From: Shigella phage Henu11
Reading direction: 5' to 3' (one strand)
DNA: 64,000 nt
Sequence record: OM953433
The notes under the pieces were generated by a model. It ran no database searches. It worked only from the letters and a program-made list of their open reading frames with translations, and was not told the DNA's origin. This document shows, piece by piece, positions 6,043 to 45,360 of this stretch; the stretch's first letter is position 1, and each line of letters begins with the position of its first letter. The translations under genes and the position numbers were made by a program.

Positions 6043-6483
6043 ATGCAGAGGATGTACGTTCACCCAGATATCAATAACCTTGTCCAAGCTTTAGAAAGAG
6101 TTGAAGCACTTTACATCGAGGCTCAGAAGGAGTATGCTTATCAACATCGTCGAATGGTTGATGTTCAGCATGAGATAGAACTATCAAGTGGATACGACGA
6201 AGGTTTAAAGTGTTCTGTATTTGAGCACATGAAAGAGATATCTTCAGAAAGACGTAAAGCGAAAGACACAATCTTTTTGATAGATACCTTAAAAAATAAG
6301 TTGCAAAATGGAACGGACTTAGATAGTCTATCCCAACTGCTTCAGGATGCAGAGAATACGTGGGACAGAAATTACTTCCCACGGTCTGAAAAAGGACTTG
6401 ACTTCTCTTCACAAGAAAGCTTAAGATTATCACGACTTACTATTAACAAAATGAGAGAGATTAAAGATGAAAACTGTAAATGA
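6043..6483 (+). CDS. hypothetical protein
   Basis: 146 aa; first gene of plus-strand block after AT-rich divergent region. Confidence 0.5.
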   Translation: MQRMYVHPDINNLVQALERVEALYIEAQKEYAYQHRRMVDVQHEIELSSGYDEGLKCSVFEHMKEISSERRKAKDTIFLIDTLKNKLQNGTDLDSLSQLLQDAENTWDRNYFPRSEKGLDFSSQESLRLSRLTINKMREIKDENCK

Positions 6484-7261
6484 GATTCTGGAAGAAAAAG
6501 GTATTGACGAAGCATTCATGCTGAACACTGTTGAGACTCTTGCTATCATTATGCGTAGCAACTCACTGTCAGGAAAATTTATCCCTGAATCTCTGCGTGT
6601 TGTAAAAAACGCTGTAGAGAATGACGAAGATTTCCGTAAAGAGGTTGAATACCTGCTGTCTAATAAGACTGATGCTCTGAAAACCATCCTCATTGGTGTT
6701 GATGCTTTTGCAACATATATCTTTGATGAAATGTATTCAGGTGGATACATCCAGATTACTGAGCAGGGTATTAAAGAGCTTGATAACATGAGTGATGAAG
6801 ACATTCTGAAAGCTATTTGTACGCCAGTTGCTGCTGTAATGGCATCACTAGAGAAGCGTATGAATGATAAGTCACCACGTTATGTAAAACTTGATTGGGG
6901 CTTTGATGAAGTATCTGAAAAGGCAATTCAGTATGCTGATGAGACAATGAATAAGCTGTCAGAGATTACTAATGGTCTCGCATTAGACCCTATTCAGGTG
7001 AAGGTAACTTCACTGTTAAACGCTATCTTTAGTATCATGGGTATCCATGCTTTACTTGAAGTTTCAAAAATGTTAGAGTCTGACCCAAGCTTTGTAGAGA
7101 GCATTTCACAAGGTGCTCATACAGCAGCACTCGGAGAAGTATTTAGTCAAACTGGTGCAGCAGTTCTTAGCACCAAGATTGCAATCAACTTCGGTGAAGA
7201 GTTTGTTCAGCAGCTAGAAGCAATGTCTGAGCGTGAACTCACTGGTTATAAACTACAATAA
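6467..7261 (+). CDS. hypothetical protein
   Basis: 264 aa ORF followed by hairpin terminator. Confidence 0.5.
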   Translation: MKTVNEILEEKGIDEAFMLNTVETLAIIMRSNSLSGKFIPESLRVVKNAVENDEDFRKEVEYLLSNKTDALKTILIGVDAFATYIFDEMYSGGYIQITEQGIKELDNMSDEDILKAICTPVAAVMASLEKRMNDKSPRYVKLDWGFDEVSEKAIQYADETMNKLSEITNGLALDPIQVKVTSLLNAIFSIMGIHALLEVSKMLESDPSFVESISQGAHTAALGEVFSQTGAAVLSTKIAINFGEEFVQQLEAMSERELTGYKLQ

Positions 7262-35694: not shown

Positions 35695-35887
35695 TTTCTG
35701 CACTAAGTGTTCTGTTGAGATGTTTGGAAAAGATACAGGAGACTTAAAAGGTCTCTTTACAAAGGCAGAATTTAAAGCTGGTTCAGCAATGCCAGTAATC
35801 TGTGAAGGTTGCGGTGCTTTATGGGTAGACCATGAAGGTAACCGAGTTAAACCATCTGAAGATAACGAACGTTGGGAGCATTACTAA
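35687..35887 (+). CDS. small zinc-ribbon protein
   Basis: 66 aa; CTKC...CEGC cysteine pairs. Confidence 0.4.
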   Translation: MADFCTKCSVEMFGKDTGDLKGLFTKAEFKAGSAMPVICEGCGALWVDHEGNRVKPSEDNERWEHY

Positions 35888-35888
35888 T

Positions 35889-36683
35889 ATGGGTATCGTA
35901 AAAATTATTAAAGGTGATATCTTTAAAGATTTTGATGGTAAGAAGTTTGATATCATTGGTCACGGTTGTAACTGCATGAACTTGATGCCAGCAGGTATCG
36001 CAGCAACAATTGCTAAACGCTACCCAAAAGCTTATGAAACTGACGCTGAAGTTTATGCTACAGTAGGTGGTGAAAATCATAACCCTAAGCATCTAATGCT
36101 TGGTAACATCTCTGTAGCACGTTTTAAGCAGGGTCGAATTGCTAACCTTTACACTCAGGTTATCACTGGCAAAGATGCACGATACAACGCCTTAGAAGCA
36201 GCTTTACAGCGTCTTAACAACTACTGTAAAGTTAATCAACTTAAGAAAGTTGGGCTTCCGATGATTGGTGCAGGGATTGGTGGTCTTGATAGCATGGCTG
36301 TACTGTCCATTATCAACCAGACTATGAAGGATGTTGACGTTTATATGTATGTCTATGAAGATAAGATGTACAGTCAGTTGACTAGTCCTGTTACTGGTTG
36401 GGAGAACTTCAGTGAGCCTCAATACTTTGATGGTGTTGCTGTGGTAGGCAAGGATAAAGTTACCCTCAAGGTGAAGCGTAATGGCAAGGTACACACCAGT
36501 TACCCTCCGGTTGAGAAGTACAATCGAAGTAACGCTCAAGTTACCCACCCGTTACAAGGCCACCACCACAGAGCGGTAACGTTTGGCGATGATGCAAGTG
36601 TATATATCAATGCGACTACAGAAGAGTTTGCAGAAGATTATATCACACATGAAAACGTAAACTATGTTGAAGCACGTAACTAA
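35889..36683 (+). CDS. macro-domain (ADP-ribose binding/processing) protein
   Basis: about 264 aa from ATG after upstream stop; IIKGDIF, FDIIGHGCNCMNLMPAGIA and LPMIGAGIGGLD resemble macro-domain glycine-rich motifs; C-terminal extension unknown. Confidence 0.6.
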   Translation: MGIVKIIKGDIFKDFDGKKFDIIGHGCNCMNLMPAGIAATIAKRYPKAYETDAEVYATVGGENHNPKHLMLGNISVARFKQGRIANLYTQVITGKDARYNALEAALQRLNNYCKVNQLKKVGLPMIGAGIGGLDSMAVLSIINQTMKDVDVYMYVYEDKMYSQLTSPVTGWENFSEPQYFDGVAVVGKDKVTLKVKRNGKVHTSYPPVEKYNRSNAQVTHPLQGHHHRAVTFGDDASVYINATTEEFAEDYITHENVNYVEARN

Positions 36684-36756: not shown

Positions 36757-36940
36757 ATTTTAAATTTGTGCAGGTATAGTTGCATAGAACTCTGGACAGA
36801 TTTCTTTAGCTGAACTCCAAAGGGAAAATTCATTTCAAATTTGTGCAGGTTTAGACTCCAAAGGGGTTTTTCATTTTCAATCTGTGCAGATGCAGTTGGA
36901 CTCCAAAGGGAAAATTCATTTTCAGTTTGTGCAGGTAGGT
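36749..36940. repeat. four direct ~40-bp repeats (CTCCAAAGGG..TTCATTT..TTTGTGCAGGT)
   Basis: copies near 36749, 36824, 36856, 36900; TGTGCAGGT also at 32566. Confidence 0.7.
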
Positions 36941-36988: not shown

Positions 36989-37108
36989 AAAAGTCAAGAT
37001 AAAAATTTGTAGAGAACTCAAAAATAATTCTTGACTAGATTCCTGTTTTAGTGTATCCGCATACGTGCGTTCTATTCACGAAACATCAAAAATATTTTTA
37101 AAAATTTT

Positions 37109-37137
37109 GTTGACTTCATAAATCCAGTCTTATAGTA
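37109..37137 (+). promoter_or_regulatory. sigma70-like promoter with AT-rich upstream element, upstream of small-gene array
   Basis: TTGACT, about 17 bp, TAGTAT; preceded by AAAAATATTTTTAAAAATTTT. Confidence 0.45.
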
Positions 37138-37187
37138 TTTGCATCAACGGGAAACATCCCAACAATCCTAAACTGGAGAATCTGAAA

Positions 37188-37394
37188 ATGTTATATCAAC
37201 GTGAGTTAATGATTGTTGACAACAACAAAACAAATAAACGTCGTTTCTATATGCTAATTTGTGATGTTTGGCAACGTATCTCAGAAAAAGATTTTGATAA
37301 ATATGTTAATACGTCAATCAGGTCAGATTGTTACTTGACAAATCATACAAGACAGTTTACAAGACATACAGCAATTTATTATTACAACGTTTAA
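37188..37394 (+). CDS. small array protein
   Basis: 68 aa; preceded by conserved leader. Confidence 0.45.
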   Translation: MLYQRELMIVDNNKTNKRRFYMLICDVWQRISEKDFDKYVNTSIRSDCYLTNHTRQFTRHTAIYYYNV

Positions 37395-37406
37395 GAAGGC
37401 TTGACA

Positions 37407-37568
37407 ATGATTAAAGAAAACGATGTAATACAATACAAAGATTTAGACGGATACCTAAAAATTGGTAAAGTCTTCTATCTCTATAAATCTGCTATGGGTA
37501 ATAATTGTGTAGCCCTTACAAATGGCGATAAAATAACCATGAAAGATTTTATAAAAATTATTGCATAA
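37407..37568 (+). CDS. small array protein (53 aa)
   Basis: short ORF not in track; followed by type-B hairpin. Confidence 0.3.
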   Translation: MIKENDVIQYKDLDGYLKIGKVFYLYKSAMGNNCVALTNGDKITMKDFIKIIA

Positions 37569-37652
37569 AGTACTTTACATGGGGTTTAAAAGCTAGTATC
37601 TTAAGCCCCAGATAAAGAGCTTTACCAACAATCCTAAACTGGAGAATCTGAA

Positions 37653-38033
37653 ATGAAATATCGTGCGCCTAAATTTATCAACAAAGAAAACTTTCGTAGT
37701 ATCTTAGAGGAAACTATGAAAGAAAACTTCAAAGGAAAAATAATTGTTGTTCACGCTTACAATTTTAAGTATGATGTTAATGGTAACCGTATCAACCACT
37801 ACAAAGCTACTATGCTTGACGGTACATTATCCGGTGAAAAAGCTATCATAAATGCTATTGCAGGACGTGGTAAAACTGTGATACGATGCGAAAAAAGACG
37901 CTATCAAGGCGGAAAATATGGATATGAAGATGCAATGTATCATCTTGATAAAATGGGGTATGATGTAGAGAAAGCTGGAGTATCCCAAACTATTGGTAGT
38001 GACGGCTACGTTACAGTTTTCAAAATTAATTAA
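37653..38033 (+). CDS. small array protein
   Basis: 126 aa; conserved leader. Confidence 0.5.
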   Translation: MKYRAPKFINKENFRSILEETMKENFKGKIIVVHAYNFKYDVNGNRINHYKATMLDGTLSGEKAIINAIAGRGKTVIRCEKRRYQGGKYGYEDAMYHLDKMGYDVEKAGVSQTIGSDGYVTVFKIN

Positions 38034-38123
38034 ATAAAGTCCTTTACATGGGGTTTATAGTTAGATAAGATAAGCCCCAGATAAAGAGCTTTACCAACAA
38101 TCAACCTAAACTGGAGTATCAAA

Positions 38124-38381
38124 ATGGCTACTATCAAAAACATCATTGTATCTGCAAAATCTCGTGATGACGCTCGCGCAACTGCTAAAAAACTAAATGG
38201 TAAAGTGGTTGACAACGGAAAAGAATCTGCTGTAAGATGGGGCGTGAAATGTGATAAGGAAATTACTTTAAAACGTAGTTCCTATGACCTTTTCAAAGGT
38301 GTAAAAGCAATCGGTAGAACTAACGTCTACACGAAGAAAGGTTATAAAATGCACTTATCATTAACTGACAATTTAATCTGA
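38124..38381 (+). CDS. small array protein
   Basis: 85 aa; conserved leader. Confidence 0.5.
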   Translation: MATIKNIIVSAKSRDDARATAKKLNGKVVDNGKESAVRWGVKCDKEITLKRSSYDLFKGVKAIGRTNVYTKKGYKMHLSLTDNLI

Positions 38382-38473
38382 TAAAGTGCTTTACATGGGG
38401 TTTATAAGTTGCTAGTATAAGCCCCAGATAAAGAGCTTTACTAACCAATAGTCCTAAACTGGAGAATCTTAAT

Positions 38474-38986
38474 ATGTCATACGTTGAAGCTACCTTTGAA
38501 GTTCAAAAAGAAAAATTCACTATCATCTATGAAGCTGTTAATATTTGTGAAGCATCCCATTGTGTGGAAAATTGGAAGTTTACCGATGAGCACAAAGGCG
38601 GGGTTACAATCAAACTTAAAAATCCAGAGCGTAACGGGTACAAATATGCAATTCCACAGCATTACAGCCTTTCTCAATTGATGAGTGATTATGCTAAACA
38701 AGGCCGCGAAAATCCATCTATAGAGGCTTACAAGAGCTTACAAGATGAATTACAAAGAGATTTAGAGGCTAACAGCTATGTACTATTTGCAAAGGTAGAA
38801 GATAAAGAAGGTAATACGGTATTAAATAGCTTTTCACTTGCTTATGGTTTCGATTGGTGTTATCTTGACGGGGAAGATTTAGATTCACGATTAGAAGAGG
38901 AAGTGTCGAACTCCGATGGAGAATCTGAAGTAATGGAACGTTTGGAAGACTTGAAAGATTCTGTTATGAATATCTTTAATATCTAA
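38474..38986 (+). CDS. small array protein (acidic C-terminus)
   Basis: 170 aa; conserved leader. Confidence 0.5.
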   Translation: MSYVEATFEVQKEKFTIIYEAVNICEASHCVENWKFTDEHKGGVTIKLKNPERNGYKYAIPQHYSLSQLMSDYAKQGRENPSIEAYKSLQDELQRDLEANSYVLFAKVEDKEGNTVLNSFSLAYGFDWCYLDGEDLDSRLEEEVSNSDGESEVMERLEDLKDSVMNIFNI

Positions 38987-39069
38987 AGTGCTTTACATGG
39001 GGCTATCAAGTTGATAAGATAGCCCCAGATAAAGAGCTTTACCAACAATCCTAAACTGGAGAATCTAAA

Positions 39070-39366
39070 ATGTTTATTGCCGCAAACGTTAGAACTAAAT
39101 TAAGCCAGCTATTAAGCAATATTCAATTCATTGAATCCATGCGCCGTACCTCTGAAGCCGTAGAATGGTATCACGGAAAGATTGACAAAAGGGAAGTTGT
39201 GATTTGTGTATGGAGCTTTTGTAAAGAATACAGAAAGCCGTTGCTTCAGATAGATATCTATGATAATGCTAATAAATCAGCTATTAAATCCACAAAAGAT
39301 ATGGTAGATTCTTATGAAATTAGTCACACTGGTAAACTATTCCACAAAGGTAAAAACAAATGCTAA
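39070..39366 (+). CDS. small array protein
   Basis: 98 aa; conserved leader. Confidence 0.5.
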   Translation: MFIAANVRTKLSQLLSNIQFIESMRRTSEAVEWYHGKIDKREVVICVWSFCKEYRKPLLQIDIYDNANKSAIKSTKDMVDSYEISHTGKLFHKGKNKC

Positions 39367-39707
39367 TCACATACACTGCAATTTTTATCTCTATTGTGGC
39401 GCTCTATAAAGCCTTGCAAGCGCACAGTATAGCTAATAAGGCACTTACAAGGGATTTAAAAATAAATCTTGTACGGGGCTTTTTAGAGCGTTTGAGCTTA
39501 GAACAATTGAAACGTTTAGAGATGAGCTTTCGATTCAAAGCAGAGACATACCGGATTGATAACATCCTAGATGGTGATTTTAAATTAATCAGTGATTATG
39601 ACATACTTCTTGAGTCAATTCAAGATATAAACCTGAAAGATTATTATATTGTAATAGCACAAGAAATTAATAAAAAAGAGCTTGCAATGCAGAATCAAAA
39701 CAAGTAA
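39360..39707 (+). CDS. small array protein (N-terminal TM; C-terminus ..AMQNQNK encoded by cassette)
   Basis: 115 aa. Confidence 0.45.
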   Translation: MLITYTAIFISIVALYKALQAHSIANKALTRDLKINLVRGFLERLSLEQLKRLEMSFRFKAETYRIDNILDGDFKLISDYDILLESIQDINLKDYYIVIAQEINKKELAMQNQNK

Positions 39708-39765
39708 AGTATTCATCAACGGGGCAAGATAGAAGCCCCAACAATCCTAAACTGGAGAATCTAAA

Positions 39766-40038
39766 ATGTATACTACTAATGACGGTCGCACTTTGAACGT
39801 AACTTTAAAACACTATGTAGACGGTGTATTAAACTTTGAAGAGTTAAGAGCAGAACAGCAACTATTAGATTGGCAAGTAGCAGGTTTACAAAAAACCGCT
39901 ACAGGATATGGAAAGAAAATTCCTACATCTTGGAAAGTTCGATACCTTGGAAAGTTACGCAGAATTTATCAAGATGTTTATAGTAATAGCGGTGTAAGTT
40001 ACATTATTGTTAGTGGTAAAAAGTTGTATTTAGTCTAA
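39766..40038 (+). CDS. small array protein
   Basis: 90 aa; conserved leader. Confidence 0.5.
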   Translation: MYTTNDGRTLNVTLKHYVDGVLNFEELRAEQQLLDWQVAGLQKTATGYGKKIPTSWKVRYLGKLRRIYQDVYSNSGVSYIIVSGKKLYLV

Positions 40039-40127
40039 TAAATTGCTTTACATGGGGTTATCAAGTTGATAAGATAGCCCCAGATAAAGAGATTTACCAA
40101 CAATCAACCTAAACTGGAGTATCAAAA

Positions 40128-40535
40128 ATGACTAATGTTAATCACAAAGAAGTTGCAATTTTGAAAGCACGTTTGACCATTAACCGCATCAACATTGTAA
40201 CATCAGCAGCGCCAGACGAAACACTGCATAATATCATCGGCAAAATTCAGGGCGTAGTAGTAGACACAAAACAGCTTAAAGAGTCCTTGCAAGATGTAGC
40301 AGCAGGGGCTATAATTGACGGTGCTCAATATGAGATGAAGGAAATGCTGTCAAAGTCAAAAGTAATGAATAAAGAACTTGACTTGAAAATGTTTAGATTT
40401 GCTGTTAAAGTGTGGCTATGTGTTGATTTTGATGCAAACTTTGCAATTGCTGATTTCTTTGCAACATGGTTACAGCGTAACTTACCGGTCGAAGTTTTCC
40501 GTGAAATCTGCGATGCAATTTATTCAGAGATTTGA
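40128..40535 (+). CDS. small array protein
   Basis: 135 aa; conserved leader. Confidence 0.5.
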   Translation: MTNVNHKEVAILKARLTINRINIVTSAAPDETLHNIIGKIQGVVVDTKQLKESLQDVAAGAIIDGAQYEMKEMLSKSKVMNKELDLKMFRFAVKVWLCVDFDANFAIADFFATWLQRNLPVEVFREICDAIYSEI

Positions 40536-40620
40536 TTGACATTGCAAAAGCATAGTAGTAGAGTACTCATCAACGGGGCAAGTTAGAAGCCCCAACAATC
40601 CTAAACTGGAGAATCTGAAA

Positions 40621-40869
40621 ATGTTTAATATGTTGAATATCCCTGACACTTGCCGACTCTTAACACAATTTGATAACCTTGGTAAGCCGTTTTTATATCA
40701 TATGCCAGATAACACTGCAAAAACTTACAGTTACATTGTAAACCGTTTTACGGCTTATGGTTCAAAGTATGGCTATAATGTCAAGACTCAAAAGGTGACT
40801 TTGTTCACAAGTATTGAAGAGTTACCAACTGTTGCCGTTAAACTAATCTTTACAAAGAAAACTAAATAA
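40621..40869 (+). CDS. small array protein
   Basis: 82 aa; conserved leader. Confidence 0.5.
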   Translation: MFNMLNIPDTCRLLTQFDNLGKPFLYHMPDNTAKTYSYIVNRFTAYGSKYGYNVKTQKVTLFTSIEELPTVAVKLIFTKKTK

Positions 40870-40953
40870 AGTCCTTTACATGGGGTTTAAAAGCTAGTAT
40901 ATTAAGCCCCAGATAAAGAGCTTTACCAACAATCCTAAACTGGAGAATCTAAA

Positions 40954-41511
40954 ATGAAATGCTTCCACGGTACTACACAAGAAAACTTCGTAAATCTTAT
41001 TAATGGCGGTGATAAACCATCAGGAGCTTGGAATTGCTCTGATATGGATGGATGTTTTTATGTCTACCCTGTTAGCAAGTTCTATGATGTAGAAAATCTG
41101 GATGACGAACAAATCATAGATGAAGGTATTAGAAACGCGCTTGATAGCGCAAGCATTACAGCAGCCTATCAAATGAAGTCACAAAAACTTGTCATCTTGG
41201 AACTAGATATTCCAGAAGATGATTTACAAGATGACTGGAGTTGTGAGAACATGAGCGACGTCGCAAGCTTTACAGAATATTTCGATAAAGAATGGATTAA
41301 AAAGGTTTACACAACTGAATTTAATGCTATGTATGCGCCTTTCTTTGTCCCTAACCTGAATAATAGGAACTTGGGTTATATACCGGATGAGTTACACAAC
41401 ATTGCGGCAATAGTTCAACGTAGTGATGAGATGAATAATGTTTATATTGATATCTTCGAGACTATGCAATGTAACGTAGCAGAAACGGCTATAAACGACT
41501 TAACAGCATAA
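40954..41511 (+). CDS. small array protein
   Basis: 185 aa; conserved leader. Confidence 0.5.
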   Translation: MKCFHGTTQENFVNLINGGDKPSGAWNCSDMDGCFYVYPVSKFYDVENLDDEQIIDEGIRNALDSASITAAYQMKSQKLVILELDIPEDDLQDDWSCENMSDVASFTEYFDKEWIKKVYTTEFNAMYAPFFVPNLNNRNLGYIPDELHNIAAIVQRSDEMNNVYIDIFETMQCNVAETAINDLTA

Positions 41512-41574
41512 ACGATAGAATCATACCAGTTCACTAGAAAAGCCCCGCACAGGGGCTTACAAGAGGCTTAAAAG

Positions 41575-41805
41575 ATGCTTACAACAATCTATCTTATCCT
41601 ATCTATCTGCAATGGTTCACAATGTGACTTTAAAGGTCTGGAAGAGTTTACAGGTAGCGAAAATAATGCTATTGTTGCCTGTCAGATAGCAAGGCAAGAC
41701 TACCCAACATCGGATGATATCCAATGTTACTATAAATCAGAAGATGATGAAGGGATTTACTTTGATAGTGTGAATGGTGAATATGAGATTCTTATAGAAA
41801 AGTAG
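41575..41805 (+). CDS. small protein with hydrophobic N-terminus
   Basis: 76 aa; lacks conserved leader. Confidence 0.4.
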   Translation: MLTTIYLILSICNGSQCDFKGLEEFTGSENNAIVACQIARQDYPTSDDIQCYYKSEDDEGIYFDSVNGEYEILIEK

Positions 41806-41895
41806 TTGACACTAAAAACGCAAACAAGTAAAGTATTCATCAACGGGAAGGAAACTTCCCCACTAAACAAAATTCCTAAACTGGAGAATCTGAAA

Positions 41896-42237
41896 ATGGC
41901 CTATGTAACAATTATCACCGATAAAGAAAATTCGTCATGGTCTACCCAAGTTAACGACAAAATGACACCTATGCAGTGTCTCAAATACTTTGAGCAGTGG
42001 AACAGGGGAGAAGATGTAAGCCCCTTTCAAGTGATGCAGATTGTACATGTTGACAATGAAGGGAATAAAACTACCCTTAACACTGAGTACTATACTACAC
42101 GTTTCGAGACTCGCAAATCAGCTATGCAGGGTTTAAGAGAAAAGGGATATAGTCACATTGCCGCGCTCATTTGGTCTGATTTGCTTAAAAAACAGTCATT
42201 AACCTATGTTAAGCCAGAAAAAATCTTTATAAGCTAA
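41896..42237 (+). CDS. small array protein
   Basis: ORF 41806 trimmed to ATG directly after conserved leader. Confidence 0.5.
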   Translation: MAYVTIITDKENSSWSTQVNDKMTPMQCLKYFEQWNRGEDVSPFQVMQIVHVDNEGNKTTLNTEYYTTRFETRKSAMQGLREKGYSHIAALIWSDLLKKQSLTYVKPEKIFIS

Positions 42238-42432
42238 TCAACAACTTATAAAAATCTTTTGAAAAACTATTGACAATGCCCCTTGACAAGTGTAACTTTG
42301 TTCGAGGGGGTTTATCTAAAAGGATTCACTTAAAAGATTCTTTATAGATAAGCGTAAAAAGTACTTGCAAAGGTTTAATCATATCTATATAGTATCTTCA
42401 AAAGGCAACTTCCTAAACTGGAGAATCACAAA

Positions 42433-42573
42433 ATGTTAGATATCATTAAAAACCCTATCCTTTGCGGTATGATTGTTTCTGTTGTGTTGCCATTAGCAAT
42501 GCTCATCATTGGTGAAATCTCAGATAAACTTTTTGATAAAAAACTACTTGCAATACAGAATCAAAACAAGTAA
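42433..42573 (+). CDS. small membrane protein (46 aa; C-terminus ..AIQNQNK)
   Basis: not in track; conserved leader; hydrophobic core. Confidence 0.3.
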   Translation: MLDIIKNPILCGMIVSVVLPLAMLIIGEISDKLFDKKLLAIQNQNK

Positions 42574-42637
42574 AGTATTTATCAACGGGGAGGGAGACTT
42601 CCCCACTAAACAAAATTCCTAAACTGGAGAATCTGAA

Positions 42638-43165
42638 ATGAACAAGTTCCAAGCAATTAATCATATCCGTTCCAATGCAGTAATGAGCAAGCCAGTAAAA
42701 GACACCTTCGAATTCCGCTGTAATGATAAGTTGTTTGCAGTCATTACAAAAGGGGAAGATAAAAAGTATTATGTACATCGCCAAAACGTTAAGTTAGTAA
42801 CAGCAGACAACTTTATGAAAGCTGTTGCAACAATCCTACCGGATTTTATGGAACTGGTAGCAGAACTTTGTGAACACTGCATCAAGTCATCAAAGGCAGA
42901 ATTAAACCGCTTTAAAATGGCTTATGAGCGTTCTATCAAGTCCCATAACATGTATATCATGCCATTGGCTTTTGGTACTCAGGCAATGGGAACAGGTTGT
43001 CATCCTTTCCACCTTTACGATGTAGAAAGCATTTACCTTAGTGAGTCAAAAGATATTGATTTTAGTTTACAGTTAGGACAAGCATTAAATGATATGATTA
43101 AATTACACGAAAAATCCGTAAAAGATATGCAAAAAGAGCTTGACGAAATCATCGTAAATCTATAA
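42638..43165 (+). CDS. small array protein
   Basis: 175 aa; conserved leader. Confidence 0.5.
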   Translation: MNKFQAINHIRSNAVMSKPVKDTFEFRCNDKLFAVITKGEDKKYYVHRQNVKLVTADNFMKAVATILPDFMELVAELCEHCIKSSKAELNRFKMAYERSIKSHNMYIMPLAFGTQAMGTGCHPFHLYDVESIYLSESKDIDFSLQLGQALNDMIKLHEKSVKDMQKELDEIIVNL

Positions 43166-43225
43166 AGTACTTATCAACGGGGAGGGAATGACCTTCCCCA
43201 ACAATCCTAAACTGGAGACTAGAAA

Positions 43226-43489
43226 ATGAATAATCAAGAAATCACTATCCTGTTACAAATCGGTACTGACAAAGAAGATATCCAACTTTGCAAACGTATT
43301 GAAAGTGATTGGTTCAACGGTGAAATCATCGCAGAATCTTATGAAGTAGTCGGATTCATGAATGGTGAAGTTGTAAGCCATTTCGGTTTAACTAAATCTG
43401 AAGCCGTTGCAAAGTATGACGTTTTATCTTGTGAGATTCTTACAAAATACAATGAAAAAAGACTTGCAACTTATGCAGCAATGAATTAA
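43226..43489 (+). CDS. small array protein
   Basis: 87 aa; conserved leader. Confidence 0.5.
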   Translation: MNNQEITILLQIGTDKEDIQLCKRIESDWFNGEIIAESYEVVGFMNGEVVSHFGLTKSEAVAKYDVLSCEILTKYNEKRLATYAAMN

Positions 43490-43555
43490 TATTACTTTCA
43501 ACGGGGAGGGAGACTTCCCCACTAAAACAAAATTCCTAAACTGGAGAATCTGAAA

Positions 43556-43807
43556 ATGGCTACTATCCGCGCAACTGTTAACAATTTTGGCTTCCATGTA
43601 TTAGATGTTAAATTTGATATGGTTGGAACTGGTGATGCTTTCGGTATGATTGAAATGTGTCTGAAGGCAACTATTCAGGACTACAATCCATCGGAAACAT
43701 TCTGGAAAGAAACTAAACAGGAAGTTTTAAAGGATGGTGTATCTTCTTACTATTGGGGTGATTCTCTTATCACGCTTTACTACCAAAAATTTGGTGTGAT
43801 TAACTAA
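43556..43807 (+). CDS. small array protein
   Basis: 83 aa; conserved leader; last gene before convergence region. Confidence 0.5.
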   Translation: MATIRATVNNFGFHVLDVKFDMVGTGDAFGMIEMCLKATIQDYNPSETFWKETKQEVLKDGVSSYYWGDSLITLYYQKFGVIN

Positions 43808-43848
43808 CAAGTCGCCGCAACGGGGCAAATAGCCCCAGATACCTATAC

Positions 43849-43871
43849 AGCCCCTTCAATGGGGCTTTTTT
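43849..43871 (+). terminator. rho-independent terminator
   Basis: AGCCCC-TTCAAT-GGGGCT plus TTTTTT. Confidence 0.65.
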
Positions 43872-44295
43872 ACGTCTTCCTAGAATCTTACCAGACATTT
43901 AGAACAATAACTCTATAGCTTACTCTATATCCTCTTATCAAATCAACTTAAATATAAGCCCATAACCCGAAAGGGAAGGGCAATCCCTAAAACGCTCTAT
44001 AACGCTCTATACGGGCTTATCATCTCATCTTAAGCAATCATATTAACCTACTCTTAAAAGCCCTTTATAGAGCTTTCTAGAGCCTTAAAAGAATCTTATA
44101 AGGGTATAAGCTTTATTATCTCGTTAGTATCTTGTGAATGGTTAAACAGGGGCTTGAAAGTTACTTAATAATGTGTTATGGGGAACTAAAAAGAGCTTAA
44201 AAGTAACGTAAAAGATGCTTAAAAGTAACGTAAAAGTTAGCCCCCTTTACATTCTCTTAACAAAATCTTAACAAATGCAACATAGTTATGCTTAT

Positions 44296-44356
44296 TAGAG
44301 ACTTGTTAGCCCCTTGTTAAATCCTTGTTAGAGGTATGTTAAGAGCTTGTTAGACT
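44296..44356. repeat. five 11-bp phased repeats (cTTGTTAg)
   Basis: TTGTTA cores at about 44304, 44315, 44326, 44337, 44348; 11-bp spacing. Confidence 0.75.
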
Positions 44357-44545
44357 CTTTGAAGTCCCTGTATAAGCCCCTAGAAAGCCCTATAAAGAGC
44401 TATACAGGCAATTGGGCTATAGTTACTATGGAGAACCTTAGAAATGGCTGTATAGAGCTATACAGGGCTTTTAAGAGGGCTTTTAAGAGAATCACTGAGA
44501 GAGGGAAGGGAACTATAGACCAAGAGATAGTGACCATGTTAATAG

Positions 44546-44762
44546 CTTGTTAAAAAGGTTTAGAACTTGTTAGCATCTTGTTAATTATCTTAACAAAATA
44601 ACTCTTAAGATTTAACTATTTAGCAACTTATAAGCAACTTGTTAGACTCTTGTTAGTAATGTTACAGACTTGTTAAGCTCTTGTTAGTTCTGTTAAGAGA
44701 CTGTTAAGGACTTTGAAGAGATGTTAAGAGCTTGAGAGAGTTGTTAAGAGATTGTTAATGAT
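44546..44762. repeat. array of about 15 10/11-bp phased repeats (nnTGTTAAGnn), some inverted
   Basis: densest run 44638-44760 with copies roughly every 11 bp. Confidence 0.75.
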
Positions 44763-45010
44763 ATTTTAAGATTTTGCAAAGGGGATGTTACAGGGCTGTT
44801 AAGGGCTACCAAGCAGATATACACCCTAGACAGATATTTTTCAGTTCCTTCAAAGAACCTAAAAAGTGACCTACCTAGTCTATTTTATAAAAATTTTATA
44901 GAACTGAATAACTATCTATACACTATCTAGTATAAAACAGGTAATAACAGGCTTATAAGATACCTTGTTAGTACCGTGTTAGACCTTGTAGGATAAGCCT
45001 TTACAGGGAA

Positions 45011-45280
45011 TACCTGTTTAGTGTTATATAACAGTCTATATAGAGGCTTAGTTGACCCTAGTGAACCATCTGTAGAGAGTACTCTCTGTGACATAGAGAT
45101 TAAGATGGATATAGGGGCTTCTAAGGGGCTATGAAGAGACTAGGAAGGTGATTATATAGGTTTGGAAGAGGGCTTGTTAGAGAGCTTTGTAGAGGGCTAT
45201 TTAGAAGGGGCTATATAGTTTCACTAGATAGAGACTAAGAGGCTATATAGATACTATATAATACTATATAGAGAGTATGC
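45011..45280. repeat. cluster of palindromic CTATATAG octamers
   Basis: copies near 45011, 45216, 45246, 45259, 45270; related CTATACAG/GTATAGAG copies at 44395-44470. Confidence 0.6.
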
Positions 45281-45360
45281 TTAGATAGGTTGTTTAGAAG
45301 GTCTAGATATTTTATCACATATCATGGTGACCCAAGATGAACGGAGTGAATCCAAATTTT

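Follow-up and report, generated by a model that had tools for sequence, protein, structure and literature searches.

Composites that pair a stem-loop with an early promoter, lying between small genes, have been described in T4-type phages as promoter-early-stem-loop (PeSL) cassettes (Arbiol et al. 2010, PMC2839356; Comeau et al. 2014, PMC4122927). A PeSL is an intergenic element of ~100 bp that joins a sigma70-like early promoter to a stem-loop of the form GN-loop-CN, placed between the promoter's -35 box and its -10 box, over either one or after the -10; its 5' end is the stop codon of the upstream gene, and its 3' end is a Shine-Dalgarno sequence followed by an ATG. PeSLs are concentrated in variable regions ahead of ORFans and have GGGG...CCCC stems and promoters of the form TTTACW-N17-TAYWAT (T4/PST) or TTGACA-N17-TATAAT (RB49/phi1); their promoter activity was shown experimentally, their insertions and deletions occur via homologous recombination, and mini-circles were detected (PMC2839356, PMC4122927). 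Here we describe an array of small genes in Shigella phage Henu11 (sequence record OM953433) that is built on reiterated cassettes of this type. We analyzed a stretch of 64,000 nucleotides (nt), referred to as the window, in which the array spans positions 37110-43872. Our reading of the sequence, to which we assign a probability of roughly 0.75, is that each cassette provides a host-type promoter together with a uniform start of translation, and that the cassettes serve as recombination linkers.

In megablast searches the window grouped with the Felix O1-like myoviruses (Ounavirinae, Mooglevirus group), Citrobacter phage BSwM KMM2 being 95% identical across all of 37000-44000. An earlier note on this DNA, made without database searches, had likened the cassettes to the modules that mediate shuffling of small genes in T4-type phages, and promoter register, hairpin positions and crossovers within cassettes now support that comparison. 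The window cassettes are composites of ~85-100 nt with a stop codon in an AT-rich 5' part, followed by a promoter, a stem-loop, a Shine-Dalgarno sequence and an ATG. The promoter forms match those of PeSLs, the G-run/C-run hairpins are positioned between -35 and -10 or past the -10, and the genes are small ORFans in a variable region with insertions and deletions whose crossovers fall inside cassettes. The window cassettes have all the sequence-level and comparative features of PeSLs. The original description was confined to T4-like phages, a scope that is taxonomic and not mechanistic, whereas the window belongs to the unrelated Ounavirinae and has lineage-specific cassette sequences. Three further features are not found in PeSLs: a three-tier hairpin of 21-22 bp around the whole promoter of one cassette type, with covariation at the RNA level; a near-invariant leader of ~30 nt common to both cassette types, which is the site of most crossovers; and the arrangement of 14 cassettes in one unbroken tandem array of 6.7 kb, PeSLs being scattered.

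The Ounavirinae are a subfamily in which PeSL-type cassettes had not been described before, and our literature search found no paper tying PeSLs to Felix O1-like phages. Parts of the cassettes have been recorded, however. The 2010 genome paper of Felix O1 listed the core of one cassette type (type A, below) as a 57-bp direct repeat and a promoter like that of the other (type B) as a 39-bp repeat, without interpretation; it detected no promoters in the array region and described temporal regulation as unknown. In phage Mordin, the annotation has a 14-nt repeat_region marked ahead of ribosome-binding sites.

The array comprises 17 genes on the + strand (46-185 amino acids (aa); 37188-43807), as obtained from reading the sequence, listing its open reading frames (ORFs) and dissecting the junctions (Table 1). 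A cassette of ~85 nt precedes 14 of them. All 14 cassettes have, at the sequence level, a sigma70-type promoter with a spacer of ~17 nt and the shared leader, and 13 of the 14 have a G-run/C-run hairpin. The leader is A/C-rich, ~30 nt long and ends in GGAG 7-9 nt before the ATG. Fourteen copies of its 12-mer CCTAAACTGGAG, all of them on the + strand, lie within 37167-43546, and there are none elsewhere in the 64 kb (chance expectation 0.26; 14 occurrences were reached in none of 100 shuffles). The type A cores, the TAAAGnnCTTTA arms and the extended leader are likewise confined to the array within the 64 kb. Because a cassette precedes each of these 14 genes, each would receive a promoter of its own and have its translation start region in common with the others. 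The three genes without a cassette are genes 2 and 7, which are translationally coupled to the preceding gene, and gene 12, which follows a different hairpin (41540-41558). Most of what the earlier note had read from the letters thus held up: the number and size of the genes, a sigma70-like promoter at the array start (TTGACT-N17-TAGTAT, found by a promoter scan at 37110-37138), a common leader before nearly all genes, and two types of GC hairpin, here six of type A and seven of type B with one cassette, that of gene 14, lacking a hairpin. The gap of 9-10 nt that it gave between GGAG and ATG needed correction.

GGAG itself was considered as a Shine-Dalgarno sequence specific to the array and rejected: 26 of the 83 genes outside the array have it, and specificity lies only in the extended leader. 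We also observed that the GG(A) of the Shine-Dalgarno sequence has a potential pairing partner in a conserved CC(U) located 6-9 nt upstream (e.g., 37166-37178), as UCC...GGA in the window, CCU...AGG in the type B cassettes of Felix O1 and CCUU...AAGG in Erwinia phage phiEa21-4 (e.g., locus coordinates 2070-2081). This mini-hairpin of 3-4 bp is present in all folds and is too weak to matter alone; it could be a protein-stabilised translational operator.

The six type A cassettes (ahead of genes 3, 4, 5, 6, 9 and 11) run from a stop codon through TAAAGTnCTTTACA-TGGGGyTwww, a loop, wwwAGCCCC-AGATAAAGAGCTTTA and CCAACAATCCTAAACTGGAG to an ATG 7-9 nt further on. The promoter, TTTACA-N17-TAnnnT, is enclosed in a hairpin of 21-22 bp, and in most copies the upstream stop codon (TAA) makes up the first bases of this hairpin. 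The predicted RNA fold has three tiers (stems of 6, 5 and 10 bp, the first two parted by a 1x1 mismatch and the last two by a 2x2 internal loop, and a loop of 9-11 nt), with energies of -24 to -31 kcal/mol (z-scores -3.5 to -5.5). No U-tract was found after the cassette hairpins, the flanking sequence being CCAACAAUCC or ACUAAAC.

A covariance model built from 8 seed copies of type A detected ~200 strong sense-strand copies in 53 loci of relatives from GenBank and IMG/VR; the statistics of conservation and covariation refer to 133 distinct copies. TTTACA was invariant across them, including its unpaired CA. The loop was variable (0.05-1.2 bits at most positions) except for a TA (132 of 133 copies for each base) and a T, together making up TAnnnT exactly 17 nt past TTTACA; a frequent G at -14 is compatible with an extended -10. 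Pairs were canonical in 96.7% of cells, against 33-56% when the partners were slid by 1-3 columns, and the covariation score (0.164 vs 0.061 in shuffles) was reached in none of 500 shuffles. The outer tier showed double changes (G-C in 114 copies, U-A in 13), as did three pairs of the upper stem, with as many as four types of pair. U.G wobbles in the sense strand were present in 120 of the 133 copies at one pair and in 75 at another. Since such wobbles are mismatches in DNA, or A.C mismatches on the other strand, they point to a structure in the sense RNA.

In the early region of phage T7, promoters A1-A3 are followed by genes parted by RNase III processing hairpins. The window is similar in that small candidate host-takeover genes are parted by long hairpins of irregular shape that contain internal loops and are not followed by a U-tract, and the geometry of type A (6 + 5 bp in the lower stems and 10 bp in the upper one, with a 2x2 internal loop) resembles the T7 R-sites. 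With its 21-22 bp and two loops, type A fits the geometry of RNase III sites (irregular double-stranded RNA of at least ~20 bp with internal loops), and the type B stems of 4-8 bp are too short for it. The T7 sites differ in having no internal promoter and in not being reiterated as near-identical cassettes.

The seven type B cassettes (ahead of genes 1, 8, 10, 13, 15, 16 and 17) consist of an A-rich tract, TTGACA or TTGCAA, N17, a TAAAGT-like -10, AyTyATCAAC, a G-run/C-run hairpin of 4-8 bp and the shared leader, with TTGaca-N17-TAaaGT as the promoter consensus. Their hairpins are of variable length, and they were assessed by counts of exact-register patterns and by per-genome listing: among the TCAACGGG sites in the loci of the fetched relatives, TTG-N20-TA-N3-T-N5 stands in exact register at 185 of 214 (86%). 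In four cases a type B promoter extends over the final codons of the gene upstream of it (genes 7, 14, 15 and 16), and because the promoters are placed there, the upstream proteins share tails of the type K-x-L...QNQNK. The overlap itself had been recognised in the earlier note, which counted three shared ...QNQNK tails; this tail is common to only two proteins, those of genes 7 and 14. Both of these (39360-39707 and 42433-42573) are predicted membrane proteins. The cassette of gene 14, made of promoter and leader, lies downstream of the terminator-like hairpin at 42279-42316.

Transcription from a type B promoter is predicted to start ~7 nt past the -10, which would leave ~3 unpaired nt ahead of the hairpin. 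The stem-loops at the 5' terminus of ompA-type messages reportedly stabilise mRNA (Emory, Bouvet and Belasco 1992). A type B hairpin ~3 nt from the predicted +1, a start site placed by the position of the -10 only, would have the same geometry, which is known for its protection against 5'-end-dependent decay. Considering this geometry alone, we hold the chances that type B hairpins are 5' stabilisers to be about even.

Erwinia phage phiEa21-4, of the more distant genus Kolesnikvirus, provides an independent check on the conservation counts of types A and B, which are inflated by descent. At the corresponding position it carries an array of 17 genes, in which the homologues of genes 5, 8, 6 and 15 come in this order, unlike in Felix O1 and the window; identity to the protein of gene 15 is ~35% over roughly half. 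In its type A cassettes, both TTTACA-N17-TAnnnT and the fold in three tiers (-21 to -28 kcal/mol, z-scores -4 to -7) are retained, with a core stem of GGUG...CACC in place of the GGGG...CCCC of the window. Cassettes with the -10 in the hairpin loop are also found, and the leader AACAACCCUUAUAAAGGAAUC is a recognisable homologue of the window leader CAACAAUCCUAAACUGGAGAAUC. Thus, as far as sequences tell, the architecture of the cassettes is conserved across genera while their sequence has diverged. One junction of phiEa21-4, before its gene 29 (locus 6398-6500), is of a different kind: the canonical terminator GGGGGCUUUACAGCCCC, followed by U5, has in its loop the TTTACA -35 of a promoter with TATACT, and a separate 5' hairpin lies downstream, an overlap of terminator and promoter unlike the other cassettes.

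The earlier note had proposed comparing array content among related phages. Across the six genomes in which we compared gene order, an identical fixed gene set was not seen. Genes 3, 4, 10 and 14 are missing from Moogle, and genes 8 and 10 from pEC-M719; Mordin is without gene 2 but with two additional genes between genes 12 and 13; and Felix O1 has only 9 of the 17 array genes. At each difference in gene content, the next gene bears the promoter and hairpin that stand upstream of the absent gene, and we therefore place the crossover in the shared leader. The deletion of genes 3-4 in Moogle differs, with its crossover in CTTTACATGGGG and not in the shared leader; overall, most crossovers fall inside the leader and the others in the left arm of type A. 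The breakpoints of megablast matches to relatives agree with this picture: those at 37565, 38381 and 41849 are cassette starts or hairpins, and others lie no more than ~10 nt from start codons. Identity to the Sf13 group is 96% over 37100-41800 and 88.7% over 41896-43870, the cassette of gene 13 forming the boundary, and phage mistaenkt is 94.6% identical on the right part and, for the left part, absent among the matches listed.

Per-genome listing further showed cassette variants at non-orthologous positions, homogenised within genomes. One type A variant, which in the window precedes gene 4, precedes genes 3, 4, 11 and 13 in Mordin and gene 11 in KMM2, and in KMM2 and Moogle the gene 13 hairpin is identical to the gene 1 hairpin of the same genome. 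From these sequence comparisons it appears that whole units of gene plus cassette are added, removed and swapped by recombination between cassettes. Because the cassettes are nearly identical, they would be substrates for homologous recombination, through which genes would be deleted, inserted and swapped and the cassettes homogenised. We also noted that the alleles of gene 15 are very divergent between phages that are close otherwise, with protein identities of 99% in Escherichia phage mistaenkt, 89% in Moogle and ~59% in the Sf17/3HA14 group, which suggests allele replacement or diversifying selection. Integron attC arrays likewise have tandem small ORFs, imperfect hairpin-forming repeats and gain and loss of cassettes; unlike them, the window has a promoter in each unit, homology-based crossovers of variable position and a structural constraint at the RNA level. 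No integrase was found in the annotated stretches of the fetched relatives, the window itself not having been screened for one.

As to expression, we infer promoter activity, early timing, transcription start sites and the roles of the hairpins. Because the transcript of a type A promoter would start in the 3' arm of its own hairpin, the complete hairpin would form only in RNA that reads through from upstream. In such RNA we rank a role as processing site or 3' protection first, a partial attenuator next and an efficient terminator last, on account of the missing U-tract and of the presence of real terminators at the array end and at one junction of phiEa21-4. In Felix O1, the ORFs 16, 20, 21 and 22 (homologues of genes 5, 9, 13 and 15) were reported to peak at 5 min by reverse transcription PCR, which is weak support for early expression.

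Several observations weigh against promoter-bearing recombination linkers. In the same Felix O1 data, ORFs 17, 19 and 23 peak at 25 min, and structural genes are also in the 5-min class; our literature search found no mapping of transcript 5' or 3' ends for any Felix O1-like phage. The -10 hexamers of type A are non-consensus (TAAGAT, TAGTAT, TATCTT), and the constraint on TTTACA comes partly from the stem as well as from any promoter role. Many of the 133 type A copies are related by descent, so that the covariation counts overstate the number of independent events. Finally, gene order is collinear within Mooglevirus, Suspvirus and Felixounavirus, a pattern of insertion, deletion and allele exchange and not of free shuffling.

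The alternative that fares best, which we still consider unlikely, is that each cassette hairpin is an efficient terminator and every gene an insulated monocistronic unit with its own promoter. One PeSL stem-loop of G/C type did reduce downstream lacZ as strongly as rrnB T1 (PMC2839356, PMC4122927), type A hairpins are very stable, and conservation at the RNA level means that upstream-derived RNA matters. The cassette hairpins nonetheless lack the U-tract, having CCAACAAUCC flanks, and canonical terminators stand where they are needed, as a hairpin with U6 at the array end and at the phiEa21-4 junction; type B hairpins, moreover, are located downstream of the promoter of the same cassette and would cut short the transcript that it starts. 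The hairpin at 43849-43872, annotated as a terminator in Moogle and Mordin as well, is the only one in the array in which a GC-rich stem is directly followed by a U-tract, as the rule for intrinsic terminators demands.

A more elaborate proposal, and a somewhat more doubtful one, treats the cassettes as a two-layer device for coordinate post-transcriptional control of the early class. In the first layer, type A would be a processing site (e.g., for RNase III), such that cleaved read-through RNA and RNA from the embedded promoter would receive near-equal 5' ends and the same leader, equalising expression. In the second, the leader AACAAYCCUWA...GGA...AUC would be recognised throughout by one and the same factor of phage or host, such as a RegB-like nuclease or a RegA-like translational repressor that shuts off all early genes together. 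The leader is near-invariant between genera although a shared cargo protein, that of gene 15, is only ~35% identical.

We find it quite improbable that the array is one polycistronic early operon transcribed from 37110, in which the cassettes would be elements of RNA processing or stability plus a leader, and the hexamers incidental. Type A has the size and shape of a T7-type RNase III substrate, and its covariation and G.U pairs are at the RNA level. The promoter scan detected the six type A sites without exception, along with those of type B that are consensus-like, but its enrichment over the whole array region was modest (39 sites vs 27 +/- 5 in shuffles). An incidental origin of the hexamers is hard to reconcile with a TA...T that is near-invariant within a variable loop at exactly 17 nt from TTTACA, nor does it account for the invariance of the unpaired CA of the -35. 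In type B, the TTGACA-like -35, the A-rich upstream tracts, the -10 within coding sequence and the 86% of sites in exact register also argue for promoters, and the promoter features are kept in phiEa21-4 despite the divergence of its sequence.

It is very improbable that the repeats act at the DNA level, with the TAAAGnnCTTTA palindromes as repressor operators or the hairpins as attC-like sites of site-specific recombination: each type A arm does have a 12-bp palindrome, the pair flanking the promoter, and small ORFs with imperfect inverted repeats of ~60 nt resemble an integron array, an analogy that the PeSL authors draw (PMC2839356, PMC4122927), but the compensatory changes (among them those of the outer-tier pair) join the arms and break each palindrome, the U.G pairs of the sense strand, which are frequent, would amount to mismatches in DNA or on the opposite strand, two grounds on which we rejected the operators, and the crossover point varies between leader and left arm as in homology-driven exchange and not as at one fixed site.

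Table 1. Features of the Henu11 array, with positions in the window.
Feature	Position	Strand	Description
Type B cassette, gene 1	37110-37187	+	TTGACT 37110-15, N17, TAGTAT 37133-38, ATCAAC, hairpin 37149-37160, shared leader
Genes 1 (68 aa) and 2 (53 aa, coupled, without cassette)	37188-37568	+	phrog_5293, phrog_14219, unknown function
Type A cassette, gene 3	37566-37652	+	Three-tier hairpin 37566-37624 around TTTACA (37574)-N17-TATCTT; then leader
Gene 3 (126 aa)	37653-38033	+	
Type A cassette, gene 4	38035-38123	+	TTTACA 38043-N17-TAAGAT
Gene 4 (85 aa, basic)	38124-38381	+	
Type A cassette, gene 5	38382-38473	+	TTTACA 38390-N17-TAGTAT, TG extended -10
Gene 5 (170 aa, acidic)	38474-38986	+	Core gene, found also in Felix O1 and phiEa21-4
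Type A cassette, gene 6	38984-39069	+	TTTACA 38992-N17-TAAGAT; stem GGGGCTATC/GATAGCCCC
Genes 6 (98 aa) and 7 (115 aa, coupled, N-terminal transmembrane segment)	39070-39707	+	C-terminus of gene 7 (...ELAMQNQNK) from next promoter
Type B cassette, gene 8	39682-39765	+	TTGCAA (39682)-N17-TAAAGT (39705-10), hairpin 39721-39739, leader
Gene 8 (90 aa)	39766-40038	+	
Type A cassette, gene 9	40039-40127	+	Has the outer-tier G-C -> U-A compensatory change
Gene 9 (135 aa)	40128-40535	+	
Type B cassette, gene 10	40536-40620	+	TTGACA-N17-TAGAGT, hairpin, leader
Gene 10 (82 aa)	40621-40869	+	Missing in Moogle, pEC-M719 and Felix O1
Type A cassette, gene 11	40867-40953	+	TTTACA 40875-N17-TATATT
Gene 11 (185 aa, isoelectric point 4.05)	40954-41511	+	Probable divergent ADP-ribosyltransferase fold
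Hairpin between genes 11 and 12	41540-41558	+	AAGCCCC-GCACA-GGGGCUU; without promoter or shared leader
Gene 12 (76 aa, acidic)	41575-41805	+	
Type B cassette, gene 13	41806-41895	+	TTGACA-N17-TAAAGT, hairpin, leader; homology break of Sf13 group
Gene 13 (113 aa)	41896-42237	+	
Mid-array terminator-like hairpin	42279-42316	+	CCCCUUGACAAG...CGAGGGGG then UUUAUCU
Hairpin-less cassette, gene 14	42365-42432	+	TTGCAA-N17-TATAGT and leader
Gene 14 (46 aa, single transmembrane segment)	42433-42573	+	Tail ...LLAIQNQNK from next promoter
Type B cassette, gene 15	42548-42637	+	TTGCAA (42548)-N17-TAAAGT (42571-76), hairpin, leader
Gene 15 (175 aa)	42638-43165	+	Core gene; highly divergent alleles among relatives
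Type B cassette, gene 16	43140-43225	+	TTGACG-N17-TAAAGT, 8-bp hairpin, leader
Gene 16 (87 aa)	43226-43489	+	
Type B cassette, gene 17	43464-43555	+	TTGCAA (43464)-N17-TAATAT (43487-92), hairpin, leader
Gene 17 (83 aa)	43556-43807	+	
Array end	43822-43872	+	Degenerate cassette-like hairpin 43822-43836; intrinsic terminator AGCCCC-UUCAAU-GGGGCU + U6 43849-43872

The cargo proteins had been described as devoid of recognisable motifs, which is true for sequence libraries: searches of all 17 proteins against Pfam and NCBIfam gave no family above cut-off, and each protein matches its own PHROG, of unknown function. The products of genes 5, 11 and 12 are strongly acidic. Gene 5 had no consistent fold match. 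Gene 11, in contrast to that description, models as a probable divergent ADP-ribosyltransferase fold, a group recognised by its core fold with an H-Y-E or R-S-E catalytic motif; its conserved residues are H-G-T, Y and E. Its family consists of standalone proteins of ~180 aa in 421 representative clusters, and the family profile gave only a chance-level match against PDB sequences. Directly upstream of the array lies a macro-domain gene (35832-36683; Pfam Macro, E-value 8.4e-7). Macro domains bind or hydrolyse ADP-ribose, and if the modelled fold is right the two genes could form a writer/eraser pair of ADP-ribosylation in early infection. At least 17 cassette-delimited ORFs, including the probable ADP-ribosyltransferase, are candidates for screening for host take-over or anti-defence functions.

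Felix O1 and its relatives are used as phages for diagnostics, biocontrol and therapy. The array would extend PeSL-type modular gene exchange from T4-type phages to this unrelated and widely used subfamily, and recombination between cassettes would account for the differing early gene sets of near-identical phages. The cassette map offers a testable map of promoters and RNA structures for the early region, where the control of transcription has been a question in this group since 2010, and the cassettes could serve as portable expression units in the engineering of Felix O1-like phages.

Rfam searches of the window at the gathering threshold returned tRNAs only and no cassette family, and at E<=5 on the array they returned nothing meaningful; the cassettes match no curated covariance model. 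A + strand cluster at 55464-60860 contains 24 tRNA genes, which is expected of a Felix O1-like phage. By megablast, the rII region has 100% identity to Shigella phage Henu12. Between the macro-domain gene and the first array promoter, 36814-36935 holds ~3 tandem repeats of 45 nt (ACTCCAAAGGGAAAATTCATTTTCAATTTGTGCAGG...), over which relatives annotate a minus-strand ORF that may be spurious. Downstream of the array terminator the neighbouring genes are in the opposite orientation, and a non-coding stretch of ~1.4 kb (43900-45300) separates the array from these convergent minus-strand genes. This stretch is rich in tandem repeats of 10-12 nt and 20-31 nt and also contains inverted repeats. The GenBank records of KMM2, KMM4, EcSzw-2 and Sf15 start or end in or beside it or the array, and it may be a genome terminus, a packaging site or an origin.

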